Origin: a virus
Length of the DNA: 64,000 bases
Strand: one strand, 5' to 3'
Virus record (IMG/VR): IMGVR_UViG_3300038466_000014
Program-made: the position numbers and the translations under genes
Shown: one piece after another, positions 47,005 to 64,000 of the stretch
How positions within the stretch are numbered: position 1 is the stretch's first letter
How the letters are laid out: the number at the start of each line of letters is the position of its first letter
The notes under the pieces: model-generated
Seen by the model: only the letters and a program-made list of their open reading frames with translations
The model's database searches: none
Told to the model about the DNA's origin: nothing

Positions 47005-47066
47005 ACTTCAGTTCTCCGTGTTTTGTGTTTAACCAACGGAAACACCATGTTTCCGCATTCAAAGTC

Positions 47067-47663
47067 CTATGGTGTTATAAAATATTCTACAAACTTTGAC
47101 AGATCATAATTGTCTATGGTATTAATAGCAAACATTAACCAATGAGGCGCCCCGTATCTGGTTAGAAATCCAACGAGAGCATCTCTGGTAGTAGGAATTT
47201 TTTCATCATAAATATTTATATCGGGAAGTCTGCCTTTAAGATATTTAAGCAATCCGATAACATTAACTATCGATTCAGTATCCAAACTATCATCGAGAAA
47301 ATTCTTAAGAGTATTCAGACTATAAACATTGATAATCTCTTTTAAAACAGTAGACCAAAAAACACCATCAGATCCGTCAACGCTGTCTATTAAAAAATTA
47401 AATTCATATTTTGATATTCTTTTATCTGCTATTTTATCCAGAAGATCCCGCTGATCGTGTTGTAACAATGCTTCCACCATTATATCGTCCTGATCTTCTC
47501 CAGCATCTGAATGTAATAGATAATGACCAAGAATTACAGACTCATCTATCGACAACCTAAATTGCTCCTTTCTTTTAGGTATTATATCCCCTTTAAAATT
47601 TGTCCTGAACCTTATGGTAAAATTGGTTAAAAAATGGTTTGATTTGATTAGCCACTCCCCCAC
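47067..47663 (-). CDS. hypothetical protein
   Basis: Downstream of motif copy 6; start lies within a GC hairpin. Confidence 0.6.
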   Translation of the reverse strand: MGEWLIKSNHFLTNFTIRFRTNFKGDIIPKRKEQFRLSIDESVILGHYLLHSDAGEDQDDIMVEALLQHDQRDLLDKIADKRISKYEFNFLIDSVDGSDGVFWSTVLKEIINVYSLNTLKNFLDDSLDTESIVNVIGLLKYLKGRLPDINIYDEKIPTTRDALVGFLTRYGAPHWLMFAINTIDNYDLSKFVEYFITP

Positions 47664-47788
47664 CGGTATCGTGGCGGCGATTACCAGCAGGGGAGTGGCG
47701 CGGGGTTTACCCTTCAGACATGGATGGGATCGCGAACACCATCAATTTCACGGACCAATTCCGCAAAATCAATAATACTCTATCTTAT

Positions 47789-47808
47789 TATTTAATATAT
47801 ATAATAAA
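47789..47808 (-). promoter_or_regulatory. Conserved 20-bp motif, copy 6
   Basis: Exact copy. Confidence 0.6.
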
Positions 47809-47834
47809 CTTGTATTTTTTAATAAAATTATAAA

Positions 47835-48524
47835 TTATTCCTCGTATATACAGGATTCGATACCACCATCTCCGGAAAATGTCAATTCAGCGTCCCAGGT
47901 GTATTTATTCCATCGAACCACTCTGTTTTTAAGAGCATTGGAGCATCTAAGTTCCGATTCCTTATCTATAATTATATATTCCGGAAATAGTCCGGCTTTA
48001 TCTTTATGTTTAGTCCATTTATATTCAGAGGTTAACCATAAATTTTTATCTTTGTGATGTATATAATAATCAGGCACCCTGATTTCATTATCAACATTTT
48101 CTATATATTCCTCGGAAATTAATCCCTGTTCTCCGGTGGAAGGATCGTAATCCCATGAATTCGATATTCTTATAAGACCACACCTCGGGCAAATTTCTTT
48201 CGAGATGACTCCTCCACCGTTACCCCATGTTCTACAATGAGGACCATCGTCGGCCCATCTATGTCCACGCTCCGAATAACATTTAATTACATCAGGTTCT
48301 ATTTCTATTCTATAACTACCTATATATTTTTTATGATTTGAGTGTAATCCATGCATAATCACATTTTTCTCTTTTCTCCATCCGCCCCATACATAAATAC
48401 GCACCCATGATGTTTTGGTATTTATTCCCCAATCACCACCATCGACATATTTTTCCGCCGCTTCTTTAGGATTTGAAGCCTCGATCATCATACTGTAATT
48501 TCCATCATCAGCCACATAAAACAT
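47835..48524 (-). CDS. hypothetical phage protein
   Basis: Minus-strand ORF with CPRCG. Confidence 0.65.
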   Translation of the reverse strand: MFYVADDGNYSMMIEASNPKEAAEKYVDGGDWGINTKTSWVRIYVWGGWRKEKNVIMHGLHSNHKKYIGSYRIEIEPDVIKCYSERGHRWADDGPHCRTWGNGGGVISKEICPRCGLIRISNSWDYDPSTGEQGLISEEYIENVDNEIRVPDYYIHHKDKNLWLTSEYKWTKHKDKAGLFPEYIIIDKESELRCSNALKNRVVRWNKYTWDAELTFSGDGGIESCIYEE

Positions 48525-48651
48525 GACAAATACCCCCCAATAAAAATGTACTACGGTTATTCATGTAAAACTCCTAAATAAAAAATTTGTTAATGACCTA
48601 ATTGAATCATATGAAAACATATTATTCATCAACCGTTTCATATATCATTGT

Positions 48652-48671
48652 TATTTAATATATATAATAAA
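48652..48671 (-). promoter_or_regulatory. Conserved 20-bp motif, copy 7
   Basis: Exact copy, just after the RNAP beta stop. Confidence 0.6.
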
Positions 48672-48714
48672 ATATACGTGTATACGTATATATTATTATT
48701 TATATAGGAATCCG

Positions 48715-51700
48715 TTATATACTTTCGAGCATAATAGCAATCATATACTGCTGCATCATATCTCTTACCGGATTGGTCTTTGGATACTTAAATTCACAAG
48801 AACCTCGGTTAACTATATCTCCAATTAGTTCGTTTTTAGTGGCATGATCCGAAGATAACGCACCGAAGAACTCCTCAATACATATGGGACAATCCCACGA
48901 CAAAAGACCGTATAAATCCCATTCTCCGACAGCCTGTCCACCCTCTCTCTTTTTGCCCTGGGTAGGAGCCATTGTTCTACTGACGTATTTTCCAGTTGAA
49001 CGGGAAGCCATCTTCTTTTCAGATAGGTGCTCCAGTTTAGTTTCATATAAATATCCAACCAATACTTTCTCTTTCGTCTTTCCATATCCTGGAATATCAA
49101 GTACATATCTTGGGGACAAATCCATTACATTTAAAGCCTTTAAAATATCAGATCTCTTCGGAGTTTTAAACGGTGGAAACACTAATGGGAAAAATTTCTT
49201 TTTATAGATATAATTTTTAATCTTGTCATATTCTTCTTTGGACATAGACTTGAATTTAGAAATCATACTTTTACTCATCTGTTTATTTTGTGTTCCATCC
49301 AATAAAGTAATAACCTTGCTAAATGTGTCCATAAATCGTTCTTTTGTTTCTGTGCCCATCATAATAGACAATTTCCTACCAATCATAGTACAGTGCATCT
49401 CAATCACCTGATTTAGATTCATACGGTTAATAACACCAAGCGGATTCAGAATAAGATCTACTCTGTCTCCCCATGGAAGTTTGGGCATATTTGCGTCTTT
49501 TTCTATAATTGACACTACACCCTTATTGAAAAATCTGTTATTCAATTTATCGCCTTTCATCAACATAAAGTTTTGCTGTATGATAAATTTAACCAAGATA
49601 CCTTCAAATGATTCGTTCTTTTCCTTAAACGATCCTTGTGGATATTTCCCATTAGATTTAACAAATCTCTTTTTAAACCGGTCATATGCCGGAACGAGTT
49701 TTTCAGGTATTTTGTCTATGTTCGCATATATCTCGATATTTAAAATCTTTCCACCTTCTGTTCTTAATCTTTTATAAGACTCAACATCATAGACCGCATT
49801 GGAATAAGATAATATGATATCACCTTTCTTAAATGATTCTCCTTCATCTGCTATAAATACTACATCCTCATCTTCTGCTATGTACACAAACTCTTCGAGG
49901 ATGTGCATAGAGGTATATTTCTTTGCGGCACTTTCAGAAATAACCACCGCATCTTCGTAATTATATCCTTTCCACGGCATAAGAGCAGTAAGCATATGAA
50001 CACCCAGAGCGATCTGTCCATCTCTTACACCACTACCTTCGGCGATCACATCACCCTTCTTTACAATTTGTCCGCTAACTACCGTGGGAGAAAATACGCT
50101 TATTCCGTTTTTTCCCTGTCCGCTCTTTAATAATCGTGGTTTTATATCAACATTAACTATTTTTTTGTCCGGGGTCAATATCGAAATATGATCCTTTGTT
50201 ATATTGGCAACGGTTCCGGAAACCTTTGTTTTCTTTATAAAATCATCACTAAGCAATGGTACGAGAGAGGCATCGAATCCCGTACTTACACAAGGCGGCT
50301 CCGCGTCCAGTAGCGGTATAGCCTGTTTTATCTGTCCAGACGCCATCAGTACCCGGTTTCCGTCACAAGACTCTGCGAAAGGAATCATAGCCGGTGAAGC
50401 ACTTAGCATTCCTACACCCGACACCATATTCGGATCTTTTATAGCAAATTGTCCTCTTTTACTGGCAAGAGATGTTCCAATAGACAAATGCTGAACTATA
50501 CCAATTCCAGGGCCGTCTGGGGTTTCCAACGGATCTATATTTCCAAAATATGTATCGTGAATATTCATAGACTCTTTTGTAATTGCCCGTTTATCCGGAA
50601 TTCCTCCAATACCAACGGGGGTTACTCTGGTCATCATTGATAACTCTTCAACTGGATTGATATTCTCTAATAACTGGACATTCTGTGATGTAATAACCTC
50701 CGAAAACGCTTTAGTAGGATTAAACTGAAATTTAGCGTTTTCGTCTCCACCTAATTTCTTTGCAAGATATTCGTTGTACGCGGCGTTTACCTGTTTTGAA
50801 ATTAATGCGGCGAACACTTCGGCGGTACGTATTCTTTGTTTTTCAAGGGAATTACGATCATCAACCACTCCCTGAACAACCTTGGAAGATATATAGTGGA
50901 TAATACTAACCAGATCTGAAGGATCCCCGTGTGTTTTTAAAACTTCAACTTCTATAGGCGTCAATATATTATTCCAAACCTCATCTAATATATATATTGA
51001 ATTACGTGTACCAGTCATCGATGAAACAACGCTTCTCCAAAATTCATCATCTTTTAAATCCGATTCGGACATATCTTTAGGAATATCCGGCAGAGCATAT
51101 CCAAATGAATTTACAAGCTGTTGTCCTTCTTCATTGTTGAATTGGAATGTAAGATAATTGTCTCCGATCTTAAATGTTTTAGTATTATCCGAGTCTACGG
51201 CGGGTCTTTTATCCCTGAAGTAATATTGAATATTAAACAATTTCAATAGGTTATCAAATCCAATTTTATAAGCACATATTGGAAACATAGGCAGTTTATA
51301 TCCACCGACAAATATCATCAAATACGACCCGGCTTTTACAGCCTTACTCATAATTGTCAATGTAGAATACACGGTGGATAACTGACCATAATATGGTTTA
51401 AAAAAGAATATAGGATATGTTATCATTTGATTAATTAATATCCTTGATCTTCCATTAATTAAAAATGTTCCATTATCAGTAAGATGCGGAAGATCAATAT
51501 AGGTCTCATGAATAATTCCGTCTGGATCTGCTATACGGATATTATATCTGTCCTTAATTGTAGGATTAAGTTCGGAGACCGGAGTCCTCATGACATCTTT
51601 TCGGAGCGATACTACTTTAAAAGGAATCTGTTTCTTCTCAAGAGACGTAAATATATTTGTGATATCCTGTTCCAGTCCTTCGTTAAAATCAAATCGCCTT

Positions 51701-52755
51701 TTTTCATATATATGTTCCGGGGTTTCATTCTCCAACAATTTAGGAATATCATACATTCTTAAAACCGGATTATTTGTATGGACTATAGCATCGTTTTTCT
51801 TAACTATCTGAGCCGAGTATTTCTCAATAACCCGCAAATGTTGATCCCTATTCAGTCTCTCTGAAATTTTTTCGACCTTATCGGTATCTCTTGTCACATG
51901 ATAGAGAACGGCTTTGGAAGAAGATTTAATTGGATCGGTTTTTACAATATTGTCCGGACTTACCCGTGCGTATGCTTTTAACGCGGTGTTTATTTCCGGC
52001 GCGTATCTGGACAGATCTTCATTATGCTTAACGACATTTTTAATAATATCCTTTCGCACTTTTTCTTTTTCCTCATCATCATAGTCCACCAAATCATCGA
52101 AATAATTTAATCTCATAATCATACTCTTCATTCTCGGTAAATCTACTTTCTGTCCTTTTTCATAAAACTTATAATATTTTCCTTCATCCTTATTATAAAG
52201 AAAGATAAACCAATAATCAAATGGAAAAGTACCTTCCATAATAGAATTATAAAAACTGAAAATTCTTTTATAAAAAAATAAGTCGGGAATTGGTTTCTCC
52301 GTATTTATAGCATACATCAACACTCTGCTATGGGTATCGTTTGGAATTCCATTGGCGATCCCGATTGCATTATCCATAAATTTTTTAGCTTTGCCAGTAC
52401 TAAAATTCTCAAGTTTGTATTTAGTAATACCCATTTGAGTATACCAACTCATATCTATATAATAATTAATATTTGTATATTTTTCGTATTCTCCAATCTG
52501 CATCGAAACCGGTCTAAGCATATGAGATTTAATAAGTTTTTTTAGGGAAGGCACCAGTCTGGTAACCGGTTTTTTAGTTATCGGAACCATTAAATAATTA
52601 ACCCACGAAGGTTTAATCTTCATATACTGATACGCATCTAAAAAATATGAATTTTCAGAAAAGTACATAATCGAAAAATGTTTTTTGTTTATACCGGAAG
52701 TTGGTATTTCCAACCGTTTCTGAGGAACAAATAATTTAAACTTGTCTATACGCAT
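48715..52755 (-). CDS. Phage multisubunit RNA polymerase beta subunit (unsplit, N-terminal extension)
   Basis: NGTFLINGRSRILINQ, ETPDGPGIG, DGNRVLM, GYNYEDAVVISE, GDKL...NKGV, NPLGVINRMN and GQAVGEWD motifs. Confidence 0.93.
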   Translation of the reverse strand: MRIDKFKLFVPQKRLEIPTSGINKKHFSIMYFSENSYFLDAYQYMKIKPSWVNYLMVPITKKPVTRLVPSLKKLIKSHMLRPVSMQIGEYEKYTNINYYIDMSWYTQMGITKYKLENFSTGKAKKFMDNAIGIANGIPNDTHSRVLMYAINTEKPIPDLFFYKRIFSFYNSIMEGTFPFDYWFIFLYNKDEGKYYKFYEKGQKVDLPRMKSMIMRLNYFDDLVDYDDEEKEKVRKDIIKNVVKHNEDLSRYAPEINTALKAYARVSPDNIVKTDPIKSSSKAVLYHVTRDTDKVEKISERLNRDQHLRVIEKYSAQIVKKNDAIVHTNNPVLRMYDIPKLLENETPEHIYEKRRFDFNEGLEQDITNIFTSLEKKQIPFKVVSLRKDVMRTPVSELNPTIKDRYNIRIADPDGIIHETYIDLPHLTDNGTFLINGRSRILINQMITYPIFFFKPYYGQLSTVYSTLTIMSKAVKAGSYLMIFVGGYKLPMFPICAYKIGFDNLLKLFNIQYYFRDKRPAVDSDNTKTFKIGDNYLTFQFNNEEGQQLVNSFGYALPDIPKDMSESDLKDDEFWRSVVSSMTGTRNSIYILDEVWNNILTPIEVEVLKTHGDPSDLVSIIHYISSKVVQGVVDDRNSLEKQRIRTAEVFAALISKQVNAAYNEYLAKKLGGDENAKFQFNPTKAFSEVITSQNVQLLENINPVEELSMMTRVTPVGIGGIPDKRAITKESMNIHDTYFGNIDPLETPDGPGIGIVQHLSIGTSLASKRGQFAIKDPNMVSGVGMLSASPAMIPFAESCDGNRVLMASGQIKQAIPLLDAEPPCVSTGFDASLVPLLSDDFIKKTKVSGTVANITKDHISILTPDKKIVNVDIKPRLLKSGQGKNGISVFSPTVVSGQIVKKGDVIAEGSGVRDGQIALGVHMLTALMPWKGYNYEDAVVISESAAKKYTSMHILEEFVYIAEDEDVVFIADEGESFKKGDIILSYSNAVYDVESYKRLRTEGGKILNIEIYANIDKIPEKLVPAYDRFKKRFVKSNGKYPQGSFKEKNESFEGILVKFIIQQNFMLMKGDKLNNRFFNKGVVSIIEKDANMPKLPWGDRVDLILNPLGVINRMNLNQVIEMHCTMIGRKLSIMMGTETKERFMDTFSKVITLLDGTQNKQMSKSMISKFKSMSKEEYDKIKNYIYKKKFFPLVFPPFKTPKRSDILKALNVMDLSPRYVLDIPGYGKTKEKVLVGYLYETKLEHLSEKKMASRSTGKYVSRTMAPTQGKKREGGQAVGEWDLYGLLSWDCPICIEEFFGALSSDHATKNELIGDIVNRGSCEFKYPKTNPVRDMMQQYMIAIMLESI

Positions 52756-52783
52756 AATAAATTTATTCCTTCATTGAGAATAA

Positions 52784-54286
52784 TTATTTCTTAATTTTAC
52801 CGTCTTTGTCAACGTCAAGCAACGGCTCTCCAAAAAACACTTTTTCTATTGGAGAAGACGGCCCGCGATCTGAAATTAATCCGGCTGATATGGCGGCATT
52901 AAAATTCTCAAAGCATATACCAAGGGGCCATGAAATTAAAGACGGGAGAGTTTTAATTGAATGCAATTCATATTCATATGGTTCGACCAACCTTGCCGGT
53001 TTCTGCGGATTCTTCTTATTTCTAAGTATATTGGAAAGAATAACTTCTATATGCACACTATCATAAGGCTCGTCAAACGCATATAAAGATCTCATGAATT
53101 TTAGATATAAACTTGATGGATCGAAAGATGGGCTTTTACCTCCTACCAGACCATCCATTACCTGTGCGAGCTTTGTATAATCTTTAGGAACCGGATATAC
53201 AGTATACATTTTTTCACCATCTCCATAGAGTATATTTATATATCTCGAATCTTCTTCAATATTCTCTTTATCTTTTGGAAGATGAATGATTGTCTCTTGT
53301 TCTATACTTGACCGGATAACAAGATCATTATATTTCAACTCAAAATATCCCACTGGTAATAGTAATTCGCCTTCTTTTCTTGTAATAGGAGAAGATTTTT
53401 TATAAATACTCTTATCAATAGATATGACGATCATTTCGGTCTTGGCGTACAACGAATAGTCTACCTGGGATACTCCCTTCATAACATCTTTTCTTAAATG
53501 CTCATCTGTATTGACCATCAACTCTTCTTTTAAATTAATCGCCCTAAGAGATATACTTCCGCCCAAATGGAAGCTGTTGTGTGTTTGTACTGATCCAATC
53601 ATAAATTCTTCAGAAGATGTCTTTATATCGTATACCGGAAACTTATATTTTTTACATATATTGGTTTTCTTAACAGGAACATATCCCGTTATTTTCGGAA
53701 TACTATTTTCGAGTTTACTGAGCTTATATAAGAACCAGCATCCGCACGGTTTGTCGTGGGAGCATTCTATTTCAAAACTATAATTATCTAATTTGTCACA
53801 AATTGTTTTTAATTGGGATAAGAAATTAATACTACAAATAGAAAACGCCCACGGAGTAAAAAATTTTATAAATTCCTCTAACCAATCATTTTTAAATGAA
53901 TAAAACTGCGGATGTAGTCTGAAATTGCTAAAGTTGCCCTTAATATACTTATCATCCATATTAATGTTTCTATTGGTAGCCACGAGATGTATCTTTTCAA
54001 ACATATCCTCGGGGCTTATATCGGGTACAATTTCTTTTTCAGGAATTGGATAATCATTATTTACATATATAGAATCAAACGAGGTTATTTTACCGGCTTC
54101 TTTAATATGCAGTCCCGCTACTGGATGAACAACTATAACGGGATGATCTGTTTGACAAAATAAAAAGTGTCCAGACTCCAGACCGATTAAAATCATTGGA
54201 GATGATGGATTGTGTTGTTGGATTGTTTTCCCTAATACAAATCCATCTTTACCACAAACATTTAAAGAAATATTTTTAGATTCCAA
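52784..54286 (-). CDS. RNAP beta-prime part 4, preceded by long C-intein 2 (53576-54286)
   Basis: CQTDHP (block B), VYDIKT...VQTHN/SFHLGG; C-terminal HIEVILSNIL and CFENFNAAISAGL. Confidence 0.85.
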   Translation of the reverse strand: MESKNISLNVCGKDGFVLGKTIQQHNPSSPMILIGLESGHFLFCQTDHPVIVVHPVAGLHIKEAGKITSFDSIYVNNDYPIPEKEIVPDISPEDMFEKIHLVATNRNINMDDKYIKGNFSNFRLHPQFYSFKNDWLEEFIKFFTPWAFSICSINFLSQLKTICDKLDNYSFEIECSHDKPCGCWFLYKLSKLENSIPKITGYVPVKKTNICKKYKFPVYDIKTSSEEFMIGSVQTHNSFHLGGSISLRAINLKEELMVNTDEHLRKDVMKGVSQVDYSLYAKTEMIVISIDKSIYKKSSPITRKEGELLLPVGYFELKYNDLVIRSSIEQETIIHLPKDKENIEEDSRYINILYGDGEKMYTVYPVPKDYTKLAQVMDGLVGGKSPSFDPSSLYLKFMRSLYAFDEPYDSVHIEVILSNILRNKKNPQKPARLVEPYEYELHSIKTLPSLISWPLGICFENFNAAISAGLISDRGPSSPIEKVFFGEPLLDVDKDGKIKK

Positions 54287-54409
54287 TTGAAATATACTCT
54301 CCTTTCCGTGAGAAGTATAAATTGATAAAGGGTGAGTAATAAAATCTATATACTTATCTTATAACAAATGCGAATAATAATCCTATTATTAAAGCACATA
54401 AAATATCTT

Positions 54410-55801
54410 CTACAACTCTTCCCATGCTGTGTTTTCCCATACATCATCAAATGTCACAAATCCTTTGGTATCAGAATGGATCATACCTACACTGCATTTC
54501 ATGATCCTCTCCGAGAGGTTTGTTACTGATGACGCAAGAACACCAATGTTTCTTGAACGTACTTGTTGGAACAGATTACCATAACACACAGGACACACAT
54601 CTCTGGTCTTACAGAATACGGGAGATCTTATTTCCACAGTTTTTCCGATCATTTTTTCTGAAATAGGTTCATATTTATCTACACCTGTAATAACATTTCT
54701 TCCTCCCATTTTATCGAATATCTCTTTCGTAAGTTTAACCTTTAATCCTCTTCGCGTTCCACAGTTTTTGACCTCTTTATTCAGCATAACATCGGAAACT
54801 ATATACAAGGTCTTTCTTGCACTATAACCGCCAAATGCAGTATTCAAAGCCCTGTCTATTGTACCTTTTCTTGATCCGGCGGAAGCTTTAAAATACTCTT
54901 CTGGGGTATATCCTTCCGCGAGAGATCTTGTAATAGGAGGTAGAACGTTTCCTTTCGGATCCGATATCAAACCTTTGGCAACCATAATCTGTCTAATCTG
55001 CTCTTTACCCTTGGATGCTCCGGAAGCTACTTGAATATATAGATCAGGATGGGCTATTTTTAGAAAGTCTACAAGTTCATCTTCCATCTCACTAATAATT
55101 TTTGATTGTTTACCAACATCTTTCTCTTTTGCCAGATCCAGTTTTAACTGCTCCAATTTAGGAGAAATAGTCATCATATCCAAAGAAAAAGATAACGGAT
55201 GTTGAGTGGCATACTTAAACGCAAGTCTCATAAGAACATCAATGGTTTTAACAAAATCCGCCTGATTTTTAGATATGACCTGCTGCATAAGTCTTTTCAA
55301 TTGTTTTTTGTCTACTGGATAATCCACGTATGGAAACCACTCGGGCAACGTATTGTTAAATAAAATTTTACCAACAGTTGTTCTTCTTTTAGCTCCTTTA
55401 TAATCAATTATTATATTATGACCAATATCATATTTGGAAATGTCCTGAATCTTGTTAATAGTGGTCGGATGGTTCTTATCGTCATAATATGTCAATGTAA
55501 ACACACCTGTAATCATCTCTTGAGTAAGGCTAAAGTTCATATCGTTTGTATGATTGGCTCCAGTAGCGGAAACCATCTGGGTTTTAATTTCCTGTTGGGC
55601 CTCCTCACTAAGAACAGCGAAGACCGCCATGGTGTCTTCTACAAACACCCCATCGAATGTACTAAATGTAAAATTATTCTTTACAGTCATATCACATCCT
55701 TTAGTCTTATTTTTATCGTATATAATCTCGATCTCAAAAGCTGGAATCAGTTCTATGTTCTTAAAATTATATTTTGATGAATGCATAATAGAAACAATCA
55801 T
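54410..55801 (-). CDS. C-intein 1 (55634-55801) + RNAP beta-prime part 3 + short N-intein 2 (54410-54496)
   Basis: CDMTVKNNFTFSTFDGVFVED/TMAVF; TTVGKILFN, SGASKG, EEYFKASAGSRKGTIDRA, RSPVFC...CPVCYG, SERIMK/CSVG. Confidence 0.88.
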   Translation of the reverse strand: MIVSIMHSSKYNFKNIELIPAFEIEIIYDKNKTKGCDMTVKNNFTFSTFDGVFVEDTMAVFAVLSEEAQQEIKTQMVSATGANHTNDMNFSLTQEMITGVFTLTYYDDKNHPTTINKIQDISKYDIGHNIIIDYKGAKRRTTVGKILFNNTLPEWFPYVDYPVDKKQLKRLMQQVISKNQADFVKTIDVLMRLAFKYATQHPLSFSLDMMTISPKLEQLKLDLAKEKDVGKQSKIISEMEDELVDFLKIAHPDLYIQVASGASKGKEQIRQIMVAKGLISDPKGNVLPPITRSLAEGYTPEEYFKASAGSRKGTIDRALNTAFGGYSARKTLYIVSDVMLNKEVKNCGTRRGLKVKLTKEIFDKMGGRNVITGVDKYEPISEKMIGKTVEIRSPVFCKTRDVCPVCYGNLFQQVRSRNIGVLASSVTNLSERIMKCSVGMIHSDTKGFVTFDDVWENTAWEEL

Positions 55802-55806
55802 CCTCC

Positions 55807-57018
55807 TTATTTTATAATTTTATTTATTTTAAACCCGACATTATTTAATCCGTCTACAACAATTCGACTACGATCTCCGTCATCATTATGTGATTTGTAA
55901 ACACATTTACATATCCAATTTTGATGCTCATCGACAGGCATTACAATGAATAACTCATAGAATTTTTTTGATAAGAATGTATATTCATAATACACCATTA
56001 GTGCAGGTGTGTATCCTTTTACAGCACTTAACTTTTTAATAAGTTCCTCATCTAAAATACAAAAATTATAATGTTTAATCTCACACAACAAGTTTTTAGA
56101 TTTAATTAAGACATCTGGAAACCAAACTCTAAATTTCCCATTGTCATCATATTCTACTTTAATTTTTGGTTGAACATCAACATCTGATATATCATATTTT
56201 GAGAAAATATAATCCAGCCATTTTTTCTCAATTTCACTATCTATTTTTACACTATTTCCATTTGGCAGTAAATAATCTATACCGGACGATTCGAGTATCC
56301 TTTGTCTTATTTCCACATTCTGTGAAACATTAGGAACGCTCCAATTTTGTAAACTTGTTTGCTCTTTTTTATCTTTAACTTCTTGAATCTGAGAAACATT
56401 ATCGACCCCATACTTTTCTTTAACCCCCTGTCTCTGCTCTTCTTTACCTTTTTCAGACTGCCACGGATAATCAGTCCCATAATGTTCCTTTGAAGTAGCT
56501 TTCTTTTTATCTTTTATTTCCTCAAGTTGTGATATATTTTCACATCCATATGTTTCAATAATCGTTTGTTTTTGTTTTTCTTTGACGCTCTCTGCTTGCA
56601 TCGCATTGGTTACTCCATATTTATCTACATTGGTTTGTTCCGCCTTGGATTTAAATTCATCGGTCTGAAATCTATATTTACCGCCATATTTTTCTTTTTC
56701 TTTTTCGACCCGGTTTTTAGCACCACACTTTAATCCACACGAAGGATTATACCCTTTTGAAAAATTCTCAAACGAAGCATAATCACCACATATAACACAT
56801 TTAGGATGATCATCTAAAGAGTTTATATTATTCTGAATGCAATACATTCTTTCGGAAGGAGTTCCTACTTTGGATTGCTTTCGGACATGCCCATCTAAAA
56901 ACGAAGTATAATTACGAACATCGTCTTTATGATAAGCATTCATATGTTTAATAGCTTTAACCGTATCATGTTCCCTCAAGATATTTTCAAACAGGGTAAG
57001 AAGTTCTTCCTTTGTCAT
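55807..57018 (-). CDS. Free-standing PD-(D/E)XK homing endonuclease with KYGxxNxxQ repeats
   Basis: CVIC...CGLKC zinc motif, about six 22-aa repeats, FPDVLIKSKNLLCEIK; sits between the two halves of a split intein. Confidence 0.75.
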   Translation of the reverse strand: MTKEELLTLFENILREHDTVKAIKHMNAYHKDDVRNYTSFLDGHVRKQSKVGTPSERMYCIQNNINSLDDHPKCVICGDYASFENFSKGYNPSCGLKCGAKNRVEKEKEKYGGKYRFQTDEFKSKAEQTNVDKYGVTNAMQAESVKEKQKQTIIETYGCENISQLEEIKDKKKATSKEHYGTDYPWQSEKGKEEQRQGVKEKYGVDNVSQIQEVKDKKEQTSLQNWSVPNVSQNVEIRQRILESSGIDYLLPNGNSVKIDSEIEKKWLDYIFSKYDISDVDVQPKIKVEYDDNGKFRVWFPDVLIKSKNLLCEIKHYNFCILDEELIKKLSAVKGYTPALMVYYEYTFLSKKFYELFIVMPVDEHQNWICKCVYKSHNDDGDRSRIVVDGLNNVGFKINKIIK

Positions 57019-57020
57019 TC

Positions 57021-57731
57021 TTAGTTTTCCTTTTGTTTAAGTAGGTATTTTCCGGCTGGATTTTTCATAAGTTCGATTGGAGAAATCTCGACAATATTAT
57101 CCAATAACGAATCATATACTATTAATGAATGATCAGATGATACCCAAAAATCCTCGAATCTGTTTTGGGAATCGTGCATTTTATACATTTCTAAGTTAGA
57201 GTGTATCGTAAATTCCAAAATCTCTTCATACGATGATTCTCCAGTTTCTTTATTAATGGAATTAATAAATAATTTATATCCTTCTTTTATTCCATAAGTT
57301 TCAACGGTTATATTGGTATCATTCTGTGTAATACCCTTAAAAATCAATGCTTCGGTCTTATCTATCAACTCATCGGAGTTACAAATAATTTCACGTACTT
57401 CATCCGGCAGACCATCATGTAATCGGGTTTCGATGCAACGAAGTCTACCCCAAAGACTGTCTCCGTCGAAGTCGGCTCCGAATGGTGCCGTAGTAGCGGG
57501 GTGCATATCTATTGTATTACCATCGATGATCTTAACGTATCTTCCCTGCATACGACCGCGCTCAATATTAGGATCTCGTTTGATAATCACTACCCGTTCC
57601 TTATTTTCCACCTCTCTTATCGCAGCATTCTTTACTTCTTGGTATAATATTTCCGGCACTTTATATCCTTTGGATATATATTTCAATAGCATCCTAATTT
57701 CTTCAATTGATGATCTTTCTACAACAGCCAT
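57021..57731 (-). CDS. RNAP beta-prime part 2 (catalytic ADFDGD) + N-intein 1 (57021-57458)
   Basis: VIIKRDP...MHPATTAPFGADFDGD/SLWG...VSSDHSLIV; AAGGAG SD. Confidence 0.88.
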   Translation of the reverse strand: MAVVERSSIEEIRMLLKYISKGYKVPEILYQEVKNAAIREVENKERVVIIKRDPNIERGRMQGRYVKIIDGNTIDMHPATTAPFGADFDGDSLWGRLRCIETRLHDGLPDEVREIICNSDELIDKTEALIFKGITQNDTNITVETYGIKEGYKLFINSINKETGESSYEEILEFTIHSNLEMYKMHDSQNRFEDFWVSSDHSLIVYDSLLDNIVEISPIELMKNPAGKYLLKQKEN

Positions 57732-57839
57732 GTCTTCTCCTTATTAAAAAGTAACTTTTTTATTCATATTTTAACCAATGGTTTATTGGCGGATAATTTC
57801 GTTTTTATAATTTGTCGTCAAATGGTCAATCAACTTCAT

Positions 57840-58487
57840 CTAAATAATTTCACCGTTTTTTATAGATTCCTTTTCTTCGTCCGTTAAAATAGAATGTTTT
57901 ATCATCACGTCATAATGTCTTTTATAGAACTCCGAGGATTCTCTTCTCAAATTATAATGGGTGTATTTATCAGCATTAAATAATCTTTCATTATCTATTG
58001 TATTACCATAAAAAAATCCTTTAAAAAACCGGTTATAATTGTTACCTGTACATAAAAGAAGATCAAAAAATATTTCGCCTTTATATTCAATATTTTTCAA
58101 TAATTGTTCAACTTCTTTTCTGTCTACCATAGGGTTAAAATAATTTACCGATAAAATCAGATATGGACCATTTGGAGGATCGATCTGTTTAATCGCATAG
58201 TCTTTAGTATTATCAAAATATATTTTTTCGGTTATAGTATTTCTATACACGATCAAATTAATACTTAATCCGGATTGGGCTTCGATTTCAAATTTTACTT
58301 CATACTCACCATTAGTACATCTATTAGGATCGAGTATATTCAAATCGCGAAGTATCTTAAAATACTGATTTTTTAATTTTATTATAGCGTCTTCTATCGA
58401 GGTGCCGTTAAAAATATGTGTATATGGAAAATCAATCATATGCACAACTTCTTTTTTCGTCTTTGTGTTAAACATGTAATAATACAT
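57840..58487 (-). CDS. hypothetical protein
   Basis: Minus-strand ORF within the beta-prime gap. Confidence 0.65.
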   Translation of the reverse strand: MYYYMFNTKTKKEVVHMIDFPYTHIFNGTSIEDAIIKLKNQYFKILRDLNILDPNRCTNGEYEVKFEIEAQSGLSINLIVYRNTITEKIYFDNTKDYAIKQIDPPNGPYLILSVNYFNPMVDRKEVEQLLKNIEYKGEIFFDLLLCTGNNYNRFFKGFFYGNTIDNERLFNADKYTHYNLRRESSEFYKRHYDVMIKHSILTDEEKESIKNGEII

Positions 58488-58511
58488 TTGGATTAAACCT
58501 TTACTATATTA

Positions 58512-58760
58512 AAAAATGGTGCAGTAATAGTCGCCAACAATAACAGCAGGGTGCTTTGCGGTAGTCATTCTACCGTATCTGTTTACTGCCACAATCAAGT
58601 ATATGCCGGATATAACTCCAAAGTATCCGGACAAACAGGAACCATGTTCACCATAATACACGAAGACGGTAGACCCCGCATTGCCTATGTCGGCGAGAAC
58701 GGAGTCGAGCCGGGTACACTCTACCGGCTCGACGAAAATAGGCAGTCCGTAAAAGCCTGA
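58512..58760 (+). pseudogene. 5'-truncated C-terminal fragment of a phage AGxxS beta-helix repeat protein
   Basis: ...YAGYNSKVSGQTGT...AYVGENGVEPGTLYRLDENRQSVKA; in-frame stop just upstream and no good start. Confidence 0.5.
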
Positions 58761-58820
58761 TAGAACAGTAAACCATAGTGTGGGAGATTATTACTCACAC
58801 CATGGTATGCCTAATGATCT

Positions 58821-58879
58821 AAATTTTATTTTATTATATTTATAAATTTTATTTTATTATATTTATAAATTTTATTTTA
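58821..58879. repeat. Tandem 23-bp AT-only repeat, about 2.6 copies
   Basis: aaattttattttattatatttat x2 plus aaattttatttta. Confidence 0.85.
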
Positions 58880-58966
58880 ATGAAATAAAAAAAGGGGATA
58901 GTTTTACGGCATATCCCCAAGGCCGTTGGAGAACAAACTCAAAATAATAACCATCCCCCTTATCGC

Positions 58967-59427
58967 TTACCCAATAAGAAGTAAATATCGGAACTCTATT
59001 TTTACGGTATGTGAAATGGTGTACCCCGGAGGGGAAAAACGGGGATTCACCATTCCGTGTTTTTGCGCCCAGGAAGAGTAAATCTTATCTTCAATGATTC
59101 GGCATTCATCTGTGACAGGTTGAGTACGCATAATTTCTCTGTCACCCACATAATCAACATGTAAAGCGCCCATCCTCAATCCTTTTTTAAATGAAAAATC
59201 GTGCCACAGCGAAGCAGTATTTGGATGCTCGATTCTTGCTTTAAAATGTTTCAATCCTGCTCCATTAATCATACTGACTAAATCGTTTCCAAGAGAATAA
59301 GCTATCTTAATGTTATTCTAAAGCTGTTGTTTGTTGACTGAAGGGTAATTTGGAGTTTCTTCTTTTACCGGAAGTGGTTGAGTAACCGGTTTTTTGCTTT
59401 GTTAAACATCCATTCAAAAATAAGCAT
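58967..59427 (-). pseudogene. Probable decayed hypothetical gene
   Basis: GGGAG SD and ATG 59427 join the downstream frame only via a frameshift at an A6 run; one in-frame TAG before the 59272 ORF. Confidence 0.4.
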
Positions 59428-59504
59428 TATATGCTCCCTTCCGGCGAAGTCGGGTGTATAATAATAGAGTCTGGCTTTCTATACATAGTTGTACCTTTAC
59501 CTTT

Positions 59505-60599
59505 TTATTTATGAAACTTTTTTAACAGGTTTTTTACCCGTATGTTAGACAATTTTTTAAATAGTTTTTTACGGCTTTCATAAGATTTTTTAACCTTTTC
59601 CGGATCTGAATGTAAATCTATTCCTATTTTTTCTAACGCGGGAACAGAATACATATTCATAGATGCTTGTATAGTCGGTTTTAATAATAGTGGATTTTTT
59701 ATAACCCTTTTCGGATCGTGCCAAATACCTTCTTTTTCAAAATTTCGTATCGATTTTTTGCTTTTATACTGTTTCATATCCGCATCTTCTCCAGTAACAT
59801 CTCTTAATACATCAAGAGTCGGTGTTTTATAGTCTCCATATAAACGCCCCCTGTTTCTAAACTTCTGTTCCTGTGAAAGTATTTCAGGAGATTTATGAGA
59901 AAAATACTGTGCTCCTCCTGCGGTCTTTCTTCTTTTTCTTTTACCTCCAGCATATACACCTAATCGGAATTTCTTATTAAAATCATCTGTATATTTAGCA
60001 TCTTTTTTTAGTTCGTGTGTTTCATGCCTATCTGTAATTGCCTGCTCCAAGTCCGTCAGTTTCTTTTTAACCCCTTCTGGAAAAGTTAATTTCGGAGGAG
60101 TTTCATATCGTATTTTTGTTTTATTTCCTTTTTTGTATGGTTCAACAATCATTTCAGCATCATTTGCAGATGGTGCGTGTGCATCAACTGAACGTAATAC
60201 ACCGGCGAAGCCGTTCCTAAGCTTTTCTCTAATTTTAATATTTTTCATATCTTCAGGAACTATTAAATCAACAACATCTTTATATTTATCAATACTCTTC
60301 ATCCCGGTTTTTTGTACTCCGCCGAGTTCTTGTTGTATATTGTAAGTTCCCTTTCTAATACCTTCTATATAATCTTTTTCTGATTTTACCATTCCTCTTG
60401 GTTTAGCCTTCTCGTATTGTTTTTCAGAAAAGTCTTTTCCTTTGGATATATCTTTTTGTAGCTGTTTCTTCTCTAAAAGATCTTGTTGATTAGTATATTT
60501 ATCTTCTTGCACTTTTTTCAGACCAGGACCACTAATCTCTCCAGATTCTATTTCCCGTTTTAATCTGGATTCTTGTAGTATATATTCAGAAATAAACAT
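59505..60599 (-). CDS. hypothetical basic protein, possibly virion-associated
   Basis: AAGGAG SD before MFISEYILQE; RHETHE motif. Confidence 0.65.
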   Translation of the reverse strand: MFISEYILQESRLKREIESGEISGPGLKKVQEDKYTNQQDLLEKKQLQKDISKGKDFSEKQYEKAKPRGMVKSEKDYIEGIRKGTYNIQQELGGVQKTGMKSIDKYKDVVDLIVPEDMKNIKIREKLRNGFAGVLRSVDAHAPSANDAEMIVEPYKKGNKTKIRYETPPKLTFPEGVKKKLTDLEQAITDRHETHELKKDAKYTDDFNKKFRLGVYAGGKRKRRKTAGGAQYFSHKSPEILSQEQKFRNRGRLYGDYKTPTLDVLRDVTGEDADMKQYKSKKSIRNFEKEGIWHDPKRVIKNPLLLKPTIQASMNMYSVPALEKIGIDLHSDPEKVKKSYESRKKLFKKLSNIRVKNLLKKFHK

Positions 60600-60728
60600 T
60601 ATTTTATTCTCCTTTAGAGTCCACATCCTCATTTTCTTTTTGTGCTTTATTCTTATACTTATCATATAATTTCTTTCCGCCGTATAGACCGGCTGTAGCA
60701 AGAATAGTACCGGCAGCACCAGTCCCTT

Positions 60729-61658
60729 TTAAATTAAAAGTTCGGGGTCCAGTTCCTTGCCAAGGAAATCCTTTAGTGTTTTATGGAACTCAGCAGATAT
60801 ACCTCTGGATTCTGGTGAATTAACCAATCCATATATAATAAATGGCTCAAAAATAGAACACGCCATCGGCATAGGGATACCAACTTCTCCGAGTTTTAGT
60901 TCTGGATTTGGGGTGATAACCGCTCTTGCTGAGAAGTCCACTCTTTTACCAAGCATCAATGATCTAATAACACCGAATTTTTTCGATTCTTTCACCTTTA
61001 CAAATTCATATAAATCTTTTACCAGTTGCTGCATCTTAAATGTTAAAATGTCGTACAGTGTTCCTGAAACGTTTTTAATCTGATTGGACAATAATATAAT
61101 TCTTCTGTATATTTCATTCATTTCATCTATCATGGAATCTTTCTGGGTTTCACCTATAAATACAGGTCTTACATATGGAGATACTACAATAACTTTATCA
61201 ATAAAAAATAAATTTTGTTTTATATTATTTTCTATCATATCTACTATCTTATCTCTTTGTGATTCTTCATCATCTTTGGAATTCTTTCTAAATTTTATTT
61301 TTTTAATGTTATCTTCAAAACTTTTGAATCCGGATATCGGTCCTTCTTCCGATTCTTCCAACTCATTGTTTTTATTTAGTTTAAAACTTTTTTCTCCAGA
61401 TAATACATAGTCTATTTTTCTCTCGATTCTTTTAGTCAATACATCATATATCGTAGGATGAATTACTTTACAATTAAGGTCTATCCACGAAAAAGACGAT
61501 CTCCTCTCAGGAGACCCTTCCATTCCGAATATTTCTTCGGATAACAATCCCTGTGGATGAAAAGAAGTTGTTTTACCAAGAAACATTTGAGGACTGCCTA
61601 CTGGTCCCTTTAAATTGTTTTCCTTGATAAACTTTTTTGTGTCCATAAGAACGATCAT
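60729..61658 (-). CDS. RNAP beta-prime part 1 (clamp region)
   Basis: GLLSEEIFG, IVVSPYVRP, MLGKRVDFSARAVITPNPELKLGEVGIP...FEPF. Confidence 0.9.
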   Translation of the reverse strand: MIVLMDTKKFIKENNLKGPVGSPQMFLGKTTSFHPQGLLSEEIFGMEGSPERRSSFSWIDLNCKVIHPTIYDVLTKRIERKIDYVLSGEKSFKLNKNNELEESEEGPISGFKSFEDNIKKIKFRKNSKDDEESQRDKIVDMIENNIKQNLFFIDKVIVVSPYVRPVFIGETQKDSMIDEMNEIYRRIILLSNQIKNVSGTLYDILTFKMQQLVKDLYEFVKVKESKKFGVIRSLMLGKRVDFSARAVITPNPELKLGEVGIPMPMACSIFEPFIIYGLVNSPESRGISAEFHKTLKDFLGKELDPELLI

Positions 61659-61678
61659 TTAAGTTTAACCTCTTTGCA

Positions 61679-62140
61679 TTACATGGGATTTGTAAGTTTA
61701 GATTGTAAAATTCTTGATAGATCATCCACTATATTCATTCGCAAATCTGCGGTTGGACCAATATTGGTTTTATCGTTCATCATCATTAATTTATCTCTCA
61801 ATTGGTTTATAATATTTAAATATTTTGCATCACCAGTTCTTGAGTACACTTTCTTTGCTAAAAATATACTTTGTCTGATAAGCTCTTTGGAAAGCCCTCC
61901 ATAATTATCTATGTATTTAAAAGTATGGGTTTTCATCATTGAAAAATCAGGATGGTATTTATTAAAAGTATACATATTAGCGGAATAATCCCCTAAGAGA
62001 TTTGATACATCTTCTCTACACTCATGGAGAACTCTATCTTTTATAGTTTTTAATTTAGCTTTGAGTTCAGAAAGTTCTGATTTCTTTCCGGCGCTCATCA
62101 ATATGGATTTAGCTATAGACATTTTATTTAAAACCTCCAA
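61679..62140 (-). CDS. hypothetical helical protein
   Basis: Minus-strand ORF with GGAGG SD near an internal ATG. Confidence 0.65.
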   Translation of the reverse strand: MEVLNKMSIAKSILMSAGKKSELSELKAKLKTIKDRVLHECREDVSNLLGDYSANMYTFNKYHPDFSMMKTHTFKYIDNYGGLSKELIRQSIFLAKKVYSRTGDAKYLNIINQLRDKLMMMNDKTNIGPTADLRMNIVDDLSRILQSKLTNPM

Positions 62141-62228
62141 AAAAATAATTGTGTATTGTATTACCCCGGAGGATCCGTATAAAACAGATCCTCCGGGGTC
62201 GAGTAATTTCTTTTATTATAATAACTGG

Positions 62229-63086
62229 TTATAATAGTTCAACACAAGACGAATTGTTTCCATCATAACATCCGAGACATACTTTATTTCTAATTTTAGG
62301 GGTGGTTACACAATTAAAAACATCTGCCAATCTTGTATACTCAAATATATTTATATTCTCAAATATGTAATTGATTTTATCGCAAAACGAAACTTTTCCG
62401 TCCGGATTAATAAACATTGTGTTACACAATCTATCTGGTTTAATTCCCGATTCTATATTTCTTTTCGTTCGGATACATTTCGCGTATGACGGGTCAATCT
62501 TATTACAAATAGTTTTTTCAACTATTTTTATGTTTGGGGATAATTCTTTTATCTTTTTAATAGTAGGAGTACAATCCTCGTCTATATAATTTTTCATAAT
62601 ATTTATTATAGGATATTTTACTAAATGGTTTGATATTAGATAATAAATCGTATTATATCCTTCAATAGATTTTTTGACTTCATCTATATCATAGTTCATA
62701 TTCATATAATTGTTTTGTATAGAAATTCGTATTGAATTAAACTTATGTATATACTTTAAACACTTAGCCATATTTTGCCGTATAGTGACGGTTCCGTTAG
62801 TATCGATAATATATCTAAAATTATAATCATGTAAATTGTTTATAATTCTAAATAGATTTTCATATAAAAACGGTTCACCGCCGCTAACCACTATTACAAC
62901 ATCAGACCAATTATATTCTTTAAATATCTTATCTAATAAAACAGTCCAATATCCAAAATTTGTTTCGTCTGTGTTTATGTACGGTATACCACAATAACTG
63001 CATCTTAAATTACACTTATATGTAACATTAAATACGAATACACGGTTTACAGCCCGGTCGGGGTTAAACTCCACCATTGTCCCCAT
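62229..63086 (-). CDS. Radical SAM protein with SPASM/twitch-like tail
   Basis: CNLRCSYC, SGGEP, DTNG; C...NPDGKVSFC...CLGC. Confidence 0.88.
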   Translation of the reverse strand: MGTMVEFNPDRAVNRVFVFNVTYKCNLRCSYCGIPYINTDETNFGYWTVLLDKIFKEYNWSDVVIVVSGGEPFLYENLFRIINNLHDYNFRYIIDTNGTVTIRQNMAKCLKYIHKFNSIRISIQNNYMNMNYDIDEVKKSIEGYNTIYYLISNHLVKYPIINIMKNYIDEDCTPTIKKIKELSPNIKIVEKTICNKIDPSYAKCIRTKRNIESGIKPDRLCNTMFINPDGKVSFCDKINYIFENINIFEYTRLADVFNCVTTPKIRNKVCLGCYDGNNSSCVELL

Positions 63087-63113
63087 GTATGATACAAATA
63101 TATGATTACCGTT

Positions 63114-63932
63114 CTAATAAGTTTTTATCGACACTATCTTTTTAGCAGGTTTACCTACCATAAACACTATCTTTAAAATTCCATTGTTTGTATAGCTCGA
63201 AAGGATATTGTTTGGATCTACATCATACGGAAGAGATAGTGTTATATGTATAGTATCATCTTCGGGGGTATTACCAATCACAAGCATTAAAAATTCATTG
63301 GCGTCTTCGCTATAAGACAATTCAAAATGGCTTGCGGCCAACCCCGGCAAAGGAATATATAGAACGCCGACAATATGTTCAGTAGCAGCCATGCACTGAA
63401 CCCCATCTTTACTTACGATAGTATTAATAGGCGGTAAACATTTATCAGAATCTATAGCAAACCTGTGATCGATCGAATCTTCGCAATAATAGAAATGCTT
63501 TACCTTGGGTGTATATAGCGTACACCCAGAGAACGGCTCTATTTTACCGAATGGGGATTCCGGATTAAATGGTACGCGCGCACTATAATTGTTGATATCA
63601 TGTGTCGAACGGTTTCCGTTTTCGGGTTCTACTGGATATGTTTCGTTAGAATTTTTCGGTGTATTATTTTTTTTTATTTCGAGTTTATTACGGGTAAAAT
63701 AATCAAACACAGGATGGTCCAGATTCATCCACGAACACTGCGTTTTCTTGCGGTCTGGTCGTTTATTACCAATCTTTTCAAAATCTCCTATAGTGTAACC
63801 GTTAAACATTTTCTTTCCAGATAGGTAATCATACCCGACCGGCTCTGAAAGGTCAGCGCCGAAAAGTTCTTGTAATGTTTTTACCAAACTATCCAAAACA
63901 TCTTTCCTGTTCTGTTTTTCCTCTGATGTCAT
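63114..63932 (-). CDS. Protein with C-terminal Hsp20/alpha-crystallin domain
   Basis: IPLPGL...LSLPYDVDPNNILSSYTNNGILKI. Confidence 0.65.
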   Translation of the reverse strand: MTSEEKQNRKDVLDSLVKTLQELFGADLSEPVGYDYLSGKKMFNGYTIGDFEKIGNKRPDRKKTQCSWMNLDHPVFDYFTRNKLEIKKNNTPKNSNETYPVEPENGNRSTHDINNYSARVPFNPESPFGKIEPFSGCTLYTPKVKHFYYCEDSIDHRFAIDSDKCLPPINTIVSKDGVQCMAATEHIVGVLYIPLPGLAASHFELSYSEDANEFLMLVIGNTPEDDTIHITLSLPYDVDPNNILSSYTNNGILKIVFMVGKPAKKIVSIKTY

Positions 63933-64000
63933 ACTAAACCCTCTCTTTTTAGGTTGATGTGATTAGACAATTAAAACAACAGACTAACGTCAGTGCCGAA

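Follow-up and report, generated by a model that had tools for sequence, protein, structure and literature searches.

A phage RNA polymerase beta-prime subunit encoded in four pieces and probably joined through two split inteins

Introduction

The closest described systems to the one reported here are the fractured genes of phages (Dassa et al. 2009, PMC2677866), in which an N-extein with the N-terminal half of a split intein (IntN), an endonuclease gene, and the C-terminal intein half (IntC) with the C-extein follow one another on one strand. We analysed a 64,000-nucleotide (nt) stretch of viral DNA (IMG/VR record IMGVR_UViG_3300038466_000014), referred to throughout as the window. In it, the beta-prime subunit of a multisubunit RNA polymerase is encoded by four minus-strand open reading frames (ORFs): part 1; part 2 with IntN1; a middle piece made of IntC1, part 3 and IntN2; and IntC2 with part 4. 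It is probable that the two split inteins join parts 2 to 4 into one chain, about 733 amino acids (aa) long, with part 1 remaining separate, and that the arrangement has its origin in mobile elements.

Intein 1 reproduces the fractured-gene layout in full. The endonuclease gene of intein 2 is missing in the window, as at one gp41 locus described in PMC2677866, and is present in two related contigs, L002 and that of P0007. There are also several differences. None of the 26 published loci concerns an RNA polymerase, whereas the host gene here is that of beta-prime; two fractures occur here in one gene, so that the IntC and the IntN on the middle piece belong to different inteins; the gaps between the endonuclease gene and its neighbouring ORFs are 2 and 5 nt, compared with a 27-51 nt gap plus an overlap in the published case; and the endonucleases there are classed as Vsr-like (I-Bth0305I type) and the one here as DUF7487, two groups that may yet be related.

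Intein 2 can be likened to the atypically split TerL inteins AceL-TerL, GOS-TerL and Cat-TerL, the IntN fragments of which have 25, 37 and 30 aa (PMC11766414). It shares with them a short IntN (28 aa) that begins with Cys1 and a large IntC with blocks B, F and G. However, its host is an RNA polymerase and not a terminase, and the likeness considered here is one of split position. IntC2 has 237 aa, against about 104-115 aa in the TerL inteins, a difference that we attribute to the retention of a decayed LAGLIDADG remnant. Intein 1 is comparable to the split intein of Aes123 PolB1 (PDB 9hth; PMC11923092), which likewise has Ser1, no catalytic cysteine and a phage polymerase gene as host. The title of that crystal entry names N159A, which we take to mean that its terminal residue is Asn, whereas the intein 1 family ends in Asp. 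Inteins have also been published in the archaeal DNA polymerase PolD (subunit DP2, Pol II), a two-barrel polymerase, in an acidic catalytic loop homologous to NADFDGD (PMC7708050, PMC4996933), and some of them end in Gln (PMC4031507), a non-Asn end as in intein 1. The archaeal inteins, however, are not split and their point of insertion is between N and CDGD, whereas intein 1 follows DFDGD; the likeness considered here is one of site. Because such loop inteins are already published, the catalytic-loop location is not surprising in itself.

The topology of the middle piece, IntC-extein-IntN with halves of different inteins, is that of engineered tandem trans-splicing, in which a middle fragment flanked by IntC and IntN is joined to two partners (Shi and Muir 2005, as cited in PMC11766414; PMC7210297). 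That system is man-made, whereas the one in the window occurs in nature and is conserved across several lineages of phages. The plain split between parts 1 and 2 recalls the multisubunit RNA polymerases of the jumbo phages phiKZ and AR9, which assemble without ligation (PMC7824862). Unlike these, the window has a beta subunit in one piece, and no beta-prime of a deposited phage exceeded 28% identity to that of the window (tblastn). Our survey of the literature on split and atypical inteins and on phage RNA polymerases, which covered few subscription journals and is not proof, found no split intein in a phage RNA polymerase and no natural protein that needs two split inteins.

Organisation of the beta-prime locus

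The features of the locus, with the intein elements as predicted, are the following.

60729-61658, minus strand: part 1, 309 aa; Pfam RNA_pol_Rpb1_2, 1.3e-9
57021-57731, minus strand: ORF of part 2 and IntN1, 236 aa
57459-57731, minus strand: part 2 extein, 91 aa, its C-terminal end being the catalytic loop GADFDGD; Pfam Rpb1_2, 8.5e-12
57024-57458, minus strand: IntN1, 145 aa; Ser1; block B motif SSDHS
55807-57018, minus strand: free-standing homing-endonuclease gene between the intein 1 halves, 403 aa; Pfam DUF7487, 1.6e-39
54410-55801, minus strand: ORF of IntC1, part 3 and IntN2 (middle piece), 463 aa
55634-55801, minus strand: IntC1, 56 aa; block F CDMTV, block G VFVED; terminal Asp, Thr+1
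54497-55633, minus strand: part 3 extein, 379 aa, from TMAVF to SERIMK; Pfam Rpb1_3 and Rpb1_5
54413-54496, minus strand: IntN2, 28 aa; Cys1; short N fragment of an atypically split intein
54287-54409, minus strand: spacer between IntN2 and IntC2, 123 nt, in frame with its neighbours and containing stops
52784-54286, minus strand: ORF of IntC2 and part 4, 500 aa
53576-54286, minus strand: IntC2, 237 aa; block B QTDHP, decayed LAGLIDADG remnant, block F VYDIKT, block G QTHN; Ser+1
52787-53575, minus strand: part 4 extein, 263 aa, beginning at the trigger-loop motif SFHLGG
48715-52755, minus strand: RNA polymerase beta subunit, 1346 aa, uninterrupted, 28 nt downstream; Pfam Rpb2_6, 5.6e-36, and Rpb2_3

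The hallmarks of a multisubunit RNA polymerase beta-prime are all found: the Pfam families Rpb1_2, Rpb1_3 and Rpb1_5 in that order, the motif GADFDGD, matches to phage beta-prime proteins and an adjacent beta gene. The order beta-prime then beta is kept in the related contigs L001 and L005. The four ORFs and their positions on the minus strand had been proposed in an initial annotation of the window, and the ORFs, motifs and Pfam matches bear them out.

The junctions read GADFDGD/SLWG (IntN1 continuing as SLWGRL) and FDGVFVED/TMAVFAV for intein 1, and SERIMK/CSVGMIH (28 residues to the end) and SVQTHN/SFHLGG for intein 2. A search of 5.8 billion proteins yielded 44 relatives. One of them, the intein-free P0004 (731 aa, from an NCBI metagenome assembly in which its contig measures 335 kb), reads ADFDGDTMAVF and SERIMKSFHLGG. 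When the window exteins (parts 2, 3 and 4) were spliced in silico with a script, the 733-aa product was 63% identical to P0004 over 724 columns, and none of the five gaps in this alignment lies at a junction. Since the alignment is gap-free at these positions, the junctions of the initial annotation are exact, and its statement that removal of the inteins restores the catalytic and trigger loops is confirmed. Taken singly, the part 3 extein is 57-58% identical to P0002 and P0004, and part 4 is homologous to the C-terminal 260 aa of the intein-free P0004 and P0006.

Intein 1 in the Mg-binding loop

Intein 1 lies between ADFDGD and TMAVF, in the Mg-binding loop. Its halves, of 145 and 56 aa, flank an intact free-standing DUF7487 gene. 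The intein lacks a catalytic cysteine; its Ser1 and Thr+1 are among the nucleophiles expected of class 1 inteins (Cys or Ser at position 1; Cys, Ser or Thr at +1). Its C-terminal end is Glu-Asp in place of His-Asn. Within the family, the terminal Asp and the block F Asp are each found in 30/30 sequences and the penultimate residue is Gln, Tyr, Trp, Phe or Glu. In block B, SSDHS, a Ser replaces the Thr of Thr-x-x-His and the His is invariant (23 homologous N-halves and contiguous inteins aligned). It has been reported that inteins ending in Asp, Gln or Glu splice via cyclisation of that residue (PMC4031507).

A Ser or Thr directly after DFDGD is conserved throughout the intein 1 family. At position 1, Ser was counted in 26 relatives; nine of about 38 N-halves begin with Thr instead, for example those of P0197, P0202, P0207 and P0208, although the reviews name no nucleophile other than Cys or Ser for this position (PMC4031507, PMC11766414). 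Cys8 of IntN1 (the C in SLWGRLRC) was considered as the first intein residue and rejected: it is unconserved, and seven extra residues would stay in the catalytic loop.

Contiguous alleles of intein 1 were found in P0008, as a 220-aa mini-intein, and in P0046 and P0070, in which LAGLIDADG_3 matches above the Pfam cut-off. We modelled the P0008 intein (P0008:88-320) with AlphaFold from an alignment that included the window halves, and obtained a mean predicted local distance difference test (pLDDT) of 89.8 and a predicted template-modelling score (pTM) of 0.85. In a Foldseek comparison with the PDB, the best 50 listed matches were all inteins or related HINT domains, the best being the cysteine-less Aes123 PolB1 split intein (E 1.3e-8, 16% identity). 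The sole low-confidence stretch of the model is a linker, and both the split of the window and the LAGLIDADG insertion of P0046 and P0070 fall there. By this model, intein 1 is split at the canonical, endonuclease-insertion site.

As a separate observation, one ORF of L003 (L003:5112-7448; L004:4271-6607) encodes part 2 followed by an entire Asp-ending intein that has a LAGLIDADG domain and belongs to the intein 1 family. A second IntN1-type half begins at its +1 Ser, which gives two tandem inteins at one site.

The endonuclease encoded between the halves gave, besides DUF7487, a weak TnsA-like N match and a match to the PHROG 'homing endonuclease' (1e-18), and has a PD...E-x-K-like C-terminal motif. 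It is 42% identical to its counterpart at the same site in L001. Its clusters in the ESM Atlas are all viral DUF7487, and some DUF7487 clusters there also carry Vsr, DUF559 or TnsA-like domains. No match to the 403-aa protein was found among PDB sequences at E up to 1, nor was there a Pfam Vsr match.

Intein 2 in the trigger loop

Intein 2 lies between SERIMK and SFHLGG, in the trigger loop, and has the canonical set of residues: Cys1, the TxxH of block B (QTDHP), the block F Asp (VYDIKT), a terminal His-Asn (THN/S) and Ser+1. The terminus is His-Asn in 39/41 sequences and Ser-Asn in the other 2/41. The intein is split after only 28 residues, and the homologous IntN2 ends of relatives have 22-33 aa. 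A profile comparison of the intein 1 and intein 2 families revealed no relationship.

Contiguous alleles are present in P0069, P0070, P0086 and P0012, with LAGLIDADG_3 above the Pfam cut-off in P0069 and P0070. The model of the P0086 intein (pLDDT 88, pTM 0.88) had as its best match the TliVMA intein (E 1.4e-14), one of the homing-endonuclease-associated VMA inteins, and also matched PI-SceI. In this model, the first ~28 residues of the intein form two short strands and a helix; the split of the window falls in the low-confidence loop that comes next. Some 120 extra aa in IntC2 can be aligned to the latter half of the LAGLIDADG domain, the acidic motif of which they lack, and for this reason we regard them as a decayed LAGLIDADG remnant.

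Evidence for splicing

Residue conservation was compared between intein-bearing and intein-free alleles. At site 1, the +1 residue is Thr in 26 and Ser in 4 intein-bearing alleles (30/30 Thr or Ser), whereas the intein-free alleles have Thr 23, Gln 21, Ala 5, Ser 2, Glu 1 and Lys 1 (25/53 Thr or Ser). At site 2, Ser (35) or Thr (6) is found in 41/41 intein-bearing alleles and in 36/54 intein-free ones, 18/54 of the latter having non-nucleophiles. Fisher tests on these counts gave 1e-7 (site 1) and 9e-6 (site 2), values that ignore the relatedness of the sequences. Every catalytic residue conserved within the two families is present in the window. Together with the alleles of all states and the HINT models of relatives, this conservation gives good support to the identification of both insertions as inteins. 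It also supports, at the level of sequence and model, the statement of the initial annotation that the middle polypeptide carries halves of two inteins and that two trans-splicing events would be needed. We infer that trans-splicing by both inteins takes place in this phage.

Several points weigh against this conclusion, the disregard of relatedness in the Fisher tests being one. Intein 1 is without a penultimate His and without a terminal Asn, and the window is the sole sequence of 30 with a penultimate Glu; moreover, slow splicing is common among inteins with a Gln or Asp end (PMC4031507). The window halves of intein 1 gave no Pfam match, a PDB sequence-profile search with IntN1 (24 sequences) gave no match, and the Pfam Intein_splicing matches, that of IntC2 included, are weak, all of them below the curated cut-off. 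Both structural models are of contiguous relatives that are 27-40% identical to the window halves. The true start of the middle piece is uncertain, its Shine-Dalgarno sequence abutting its ATG. Finally, a search of sequencing runs found no RNA run, and only DNA that makes up a small share of groundwater metagenomes.

One could therefore suppose that one or both inteins no longer splice, that beta-prime is decaying and that the phage uses another polymerase. The non-canonical Glu-Asp of block G, with a Glu unique to the window, would fit this, as would the decay that has already affected the endonuclease and the LAGLIDADG domain of intein 2 and the frequent loss and gain of intein states among relatives. 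However, all four pieces and the beta gene are open and full-length, the exteins retain their 63% identity to an intein-free allele with no indel at the junctions, the family-conserved catalytic residues are all in place, and the layout persists in lineages that are only 41-51% identical to the window. We consider a loss of splicing unlikely.

It could also be proposed that the role of the intein halves is limited to non-covalent docking and that an active polymerase assembles without ligation. There is precedent for this in the endonuclease-split NrdA of phage Aeh1, which assembles without splicing (PMC3045599; discussed in PMC2677866), and parts 1 and 2 already work as separate chains. By contrast, a folded domain of ~200-265 aa would be hard to fit in the Mg-binding or the trigger loop, judging from RNA polymerase structure. 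Moreover, only alleles that bear an intein keep without exception the nucleophiles, the block B His and block F Asp, a final Asp or Asn, and a Ser or Thr at +1. Docking would not require such conservation of catalytic residues, which makes this explanation very unlikely in comparison with covalent joining by the two inteins.

Translation signals and the spacer of intein 2

Every beta-prime piece has its own Shine-Dalgarno sequence. That of the ORF of part 2 and IntN1 is an AAGGAG 6 nt before the ATG, and that of the ORF of IntC2 and part 4 an AAGGAG 12 nt before a TTG start, which aligns with the ATG start of homologues. In the middle piece (55786-55812, minus strand), the sequence AAGGAGG directly touches the first ATG. 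The public gene call begins five codons later (458 aa), and either start retains all conserved IntC1 residues.

The 123-nt spacer is in frame with both flanking ORFs, which could suggest that the pieces are joined by RNA or by recoding, that is by intron splicing, bypass or readthrough, or that the breaks are assembly errors. However, the spacer contains five in-frame stop codons of two kinds (TAA, TAG), and in L001 the gap is of 326 nt and in another frame whereas in L002 it holds a whole gene; spacer readthrough was rejected on these grounds. An Rfam scan of positions 47000-64000 at E up to 1 detected no group I or group II intron family and only a chance snoRNA match. If the pieces were joined at the RNA level, the intein halves would moreover remain in the protein. 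As for assembly errors, identical breaks in beta-prime recur in independent JGI, ENA and Logan assemblies. The whole group of explanations is extremely improbable. It should be added that the gene order is permuted in L003 and L004, where the middle piece comes ahead of the gene for part 2 and part 1 is encoded on the opposite strand; only joining of the proteins themselves fits this order.

Intein states among relatives and origin of the arrangement

The relatives display every combination of intein states. About 10 have no intein, 6 have only intein 1 split (recognised by an IntC1 start) and 10 only intein 2 split (a short IntN2 end). Both inteins are split, as in the window, in five metagenomic relatives (P0003, P0005, P0007, P0013 and P0031) that are 41-51% identical to it. 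Contiguous inteins with LAGLIDADG occur in P0046, P0069, P0070 and P0081, and P0008 has a contiguous mini-intein. The double-split layout thus recurs in related metagenomic phages and is not unique. The initial annotation had called the arrangement exceptional; this was too strong a word given the double-split middle piece in five other metagenomic lineages and the published catalytic-loop inteins of PolD (PMC7708050).

In the 221-kb JGI contig L001, the layout of the window is repeated, including the DUF7487 gene between the intein 1 halves. Contig L002, the flanks of which are 99.98% identical to those of L001, has a 610-aa DUF7487 gene between IntN2 and IntC2. L001 retains at this position a 326-nt deletion remnant in a different frame (L001:9369-9694, compared with L002:9359-11191), and the difference between the two contigs represents the loss of a homing endonuclease caught in the act. 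In the contig of P0007, DUF7487 genes are found at all three breakpoints.

In a tree built by maximum likelihood from 29 rows of the part 3 extein, the window groups with P0002, which has intein 2 only, and P0004, which has none, and its well-supported clade of eight mixes all intein states. The double-split label requires about six changes on this tree and is no more clustered than shuffled labels. Such patchiness points to mobile inteins and homing endonucleases. A likely history begins with a LAGLIDADG intein at each site, the LAGLIDADG domain of which would then have decayed. A free-standing DUF7487 gene would next have invaded the intein coding sequence and split it, and at intein 2 of the window the endonuclease gene would later have been deleted, leaving the 123-nt spacer and a Shine-Dalgarno sequence. 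Rather than an adaptation, the arrangement is most plausibly the outcome of mobile inteins and homing endonucleases having invaded two sites of high conservation. In a different part of a related genome, the epimerase/dehydratase gene L005:4428-6623 has a weak Intein_splicing match, so that inteins may be present elsewhere in the genome of this intein-free relative.

These data also bear on the view, put forward in the initial annotation, that double trans-splicing is a post-translational switch or timer which activates the polymerase through an obligatory order of ligation. The insertions are in catalytic elements, so an unspliced enzyme should be inactive, and an Asp-ending intein could be slow or condition-dependent (PMC4031507). 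However, close relatives work without either intein, the intein states are scattered over the extein tree, and the endonuclease genes vary between genomes that are 99.98% identical. Conserved catalytic sites are, in addition, generally targeted by inteins through homing and not on account of their function (PMC4996933; PMC4760082). Selfish mobile elements account better for the patchy distribution on the extein tree and for the presence and absence of endonucleases, and a switch of this kind is quite unlikely. The 'ordered' character given to the ligation was not upheld either, as no sequence feature sets an order. In a more specific form of the idea, the slow-looking, Asp-ending cysteine-less intein of the Mg-binding loop and the intein of the trigger loop with its 28-aa IntN would have been co-opted to time maturation or to sense conditions, so as to delay or gate the RNA polymerase during infection; the natural three-piece trans-splicing would then be regulatory and more than tolerated. 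This is to our mind a doubtful proposition of the same low standing.

A model for the assembly of beta-prime

With joining by two split inteins as the preferred explanation, we propose the following sequence of events. Each piece would be translated separately from its own ribosome-binding site. IntN1 and IntC1 would associate, and an N-O shift at Ser1, transesterification by Thr+1 and cyclisation of the terminal Asp would yield DFDGD-TMAVF. IntN2 would insert into IntC2, where Cys1, Ser+1 and Asn would complete a canonical reaction and yield RIMK-SFHLGG. The resulting 733-aa chain would then assemble with part 1, beta and the other subunits.

Because of the IntC-extein-IntN topology, a cross-reaction within the middle piece would circularise it, and the pair of inteins must therefore be orthogonal in vivo. 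IntC1 and IntN2 together are without block B and cannot complement each other, which means that orthogonality would be built in; the two intein reactions are, by this reasoning, structurally orthogonal.

If both inteins splice, this locus is a natural case of three-fragment (tandem) trans-splicing that builds two key catalytic elements of an RNA polymerase. To our knowledge, three-piece tandem trans-splicing is otherwise known only as an engineered method, and we know of no split intein that combines a missing catalytic cysteine with a terminal Asp. With 28 residues, IntN2 is short enough for chemical synthesis. The relatives provide an unusually complete series of states at two sites, from intein-free through contiguous with LAGLIDADG and mini-intein to split with an endonuclease and split with the endonuclease deleted. 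This series bears on how inteins become split and includes two 99.98%-identical genomes that differ only by an endonuclease gene. In practical terms, RNA polymerase genes of metagenomic phages will be mis-annotated as fragments unless the inteins are recognised.

Part 1, the 3-kb insertion and the genomic context

In relatives, the counterpart of part 1 is a separate gene of 304-310 aa. At the P0004 locus (L005), a 306-aa part 1 gene abuts a 731-aa gene, which in turn abuts beta. Since these genes abut, the break between parts 1 and 2 is best explained as an old plain gene split of the clade, with part 1 left unligated, and the sequences indicate that part 1 is a separate, unspliced N-terminal subunit, as in all close relatives. 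In the window, the two parts are set apart by an insertion with the following features.

57732-60728, minus strand: 3-kb insertion between parts 1 and 2, outside beta-prime, comprising ORF404, ORF101 and ORF215
59505-60719, minus strand: ORF404, 404 aa, inside the insertion
58967-59272, minus strand: ORF101, 101 aa, inside the insertion
57840-58487, minus strand: ORF215, 215 aa, inside the insertion; Pfam RnlB_antitoxin, 2.9e-17

The insertion is missing from L005, and other genes are found in its place in L001 and in the contig of P0007; neither it nor the DUF7487 gene between the intein 1 halves figures in the initial annotation. An Rfam search of the insertion found no match; the block also includes two segments without long ORFs and without an Rfam match, 58488-58966 (479 nt) and 59273-59504 (232 nt).

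The window comes from a large uncultured phage, the parent sequence of which is ~180 kb long according to the protein database. Its other genes encode SbcC-like, topoisomerase II, helicase, Ro60 and radical-SAM proteins. No deposited phage matched the window in a megablast comparison, and a search of IMG/VR with the middle piece found no relative. In a species-representative genome collection, the only matches were cellular-type beta-prime genes of Patescibacteria bins (Nealsonbacteria, Saccharibacteria), with 28-31% identity (L006-L010).

ORF404 encodes a lysine-rich orphan that is predicted to be disordered (Atlas model pLDDT 0.37), and no Pfam or PHROG family matched it. It starts with a GTG located 9 nt past part 1, without a clear Shine-Dalgarno sequence, and its Atlas record begins at residue 19. 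In addition to its RnlB_antitoxin match, ORF215 matches a PHROG of unknown function (4e-18). From the former match, the protein may act in phage counter-defence against RNase toxins of the RnlA/LsoA type.

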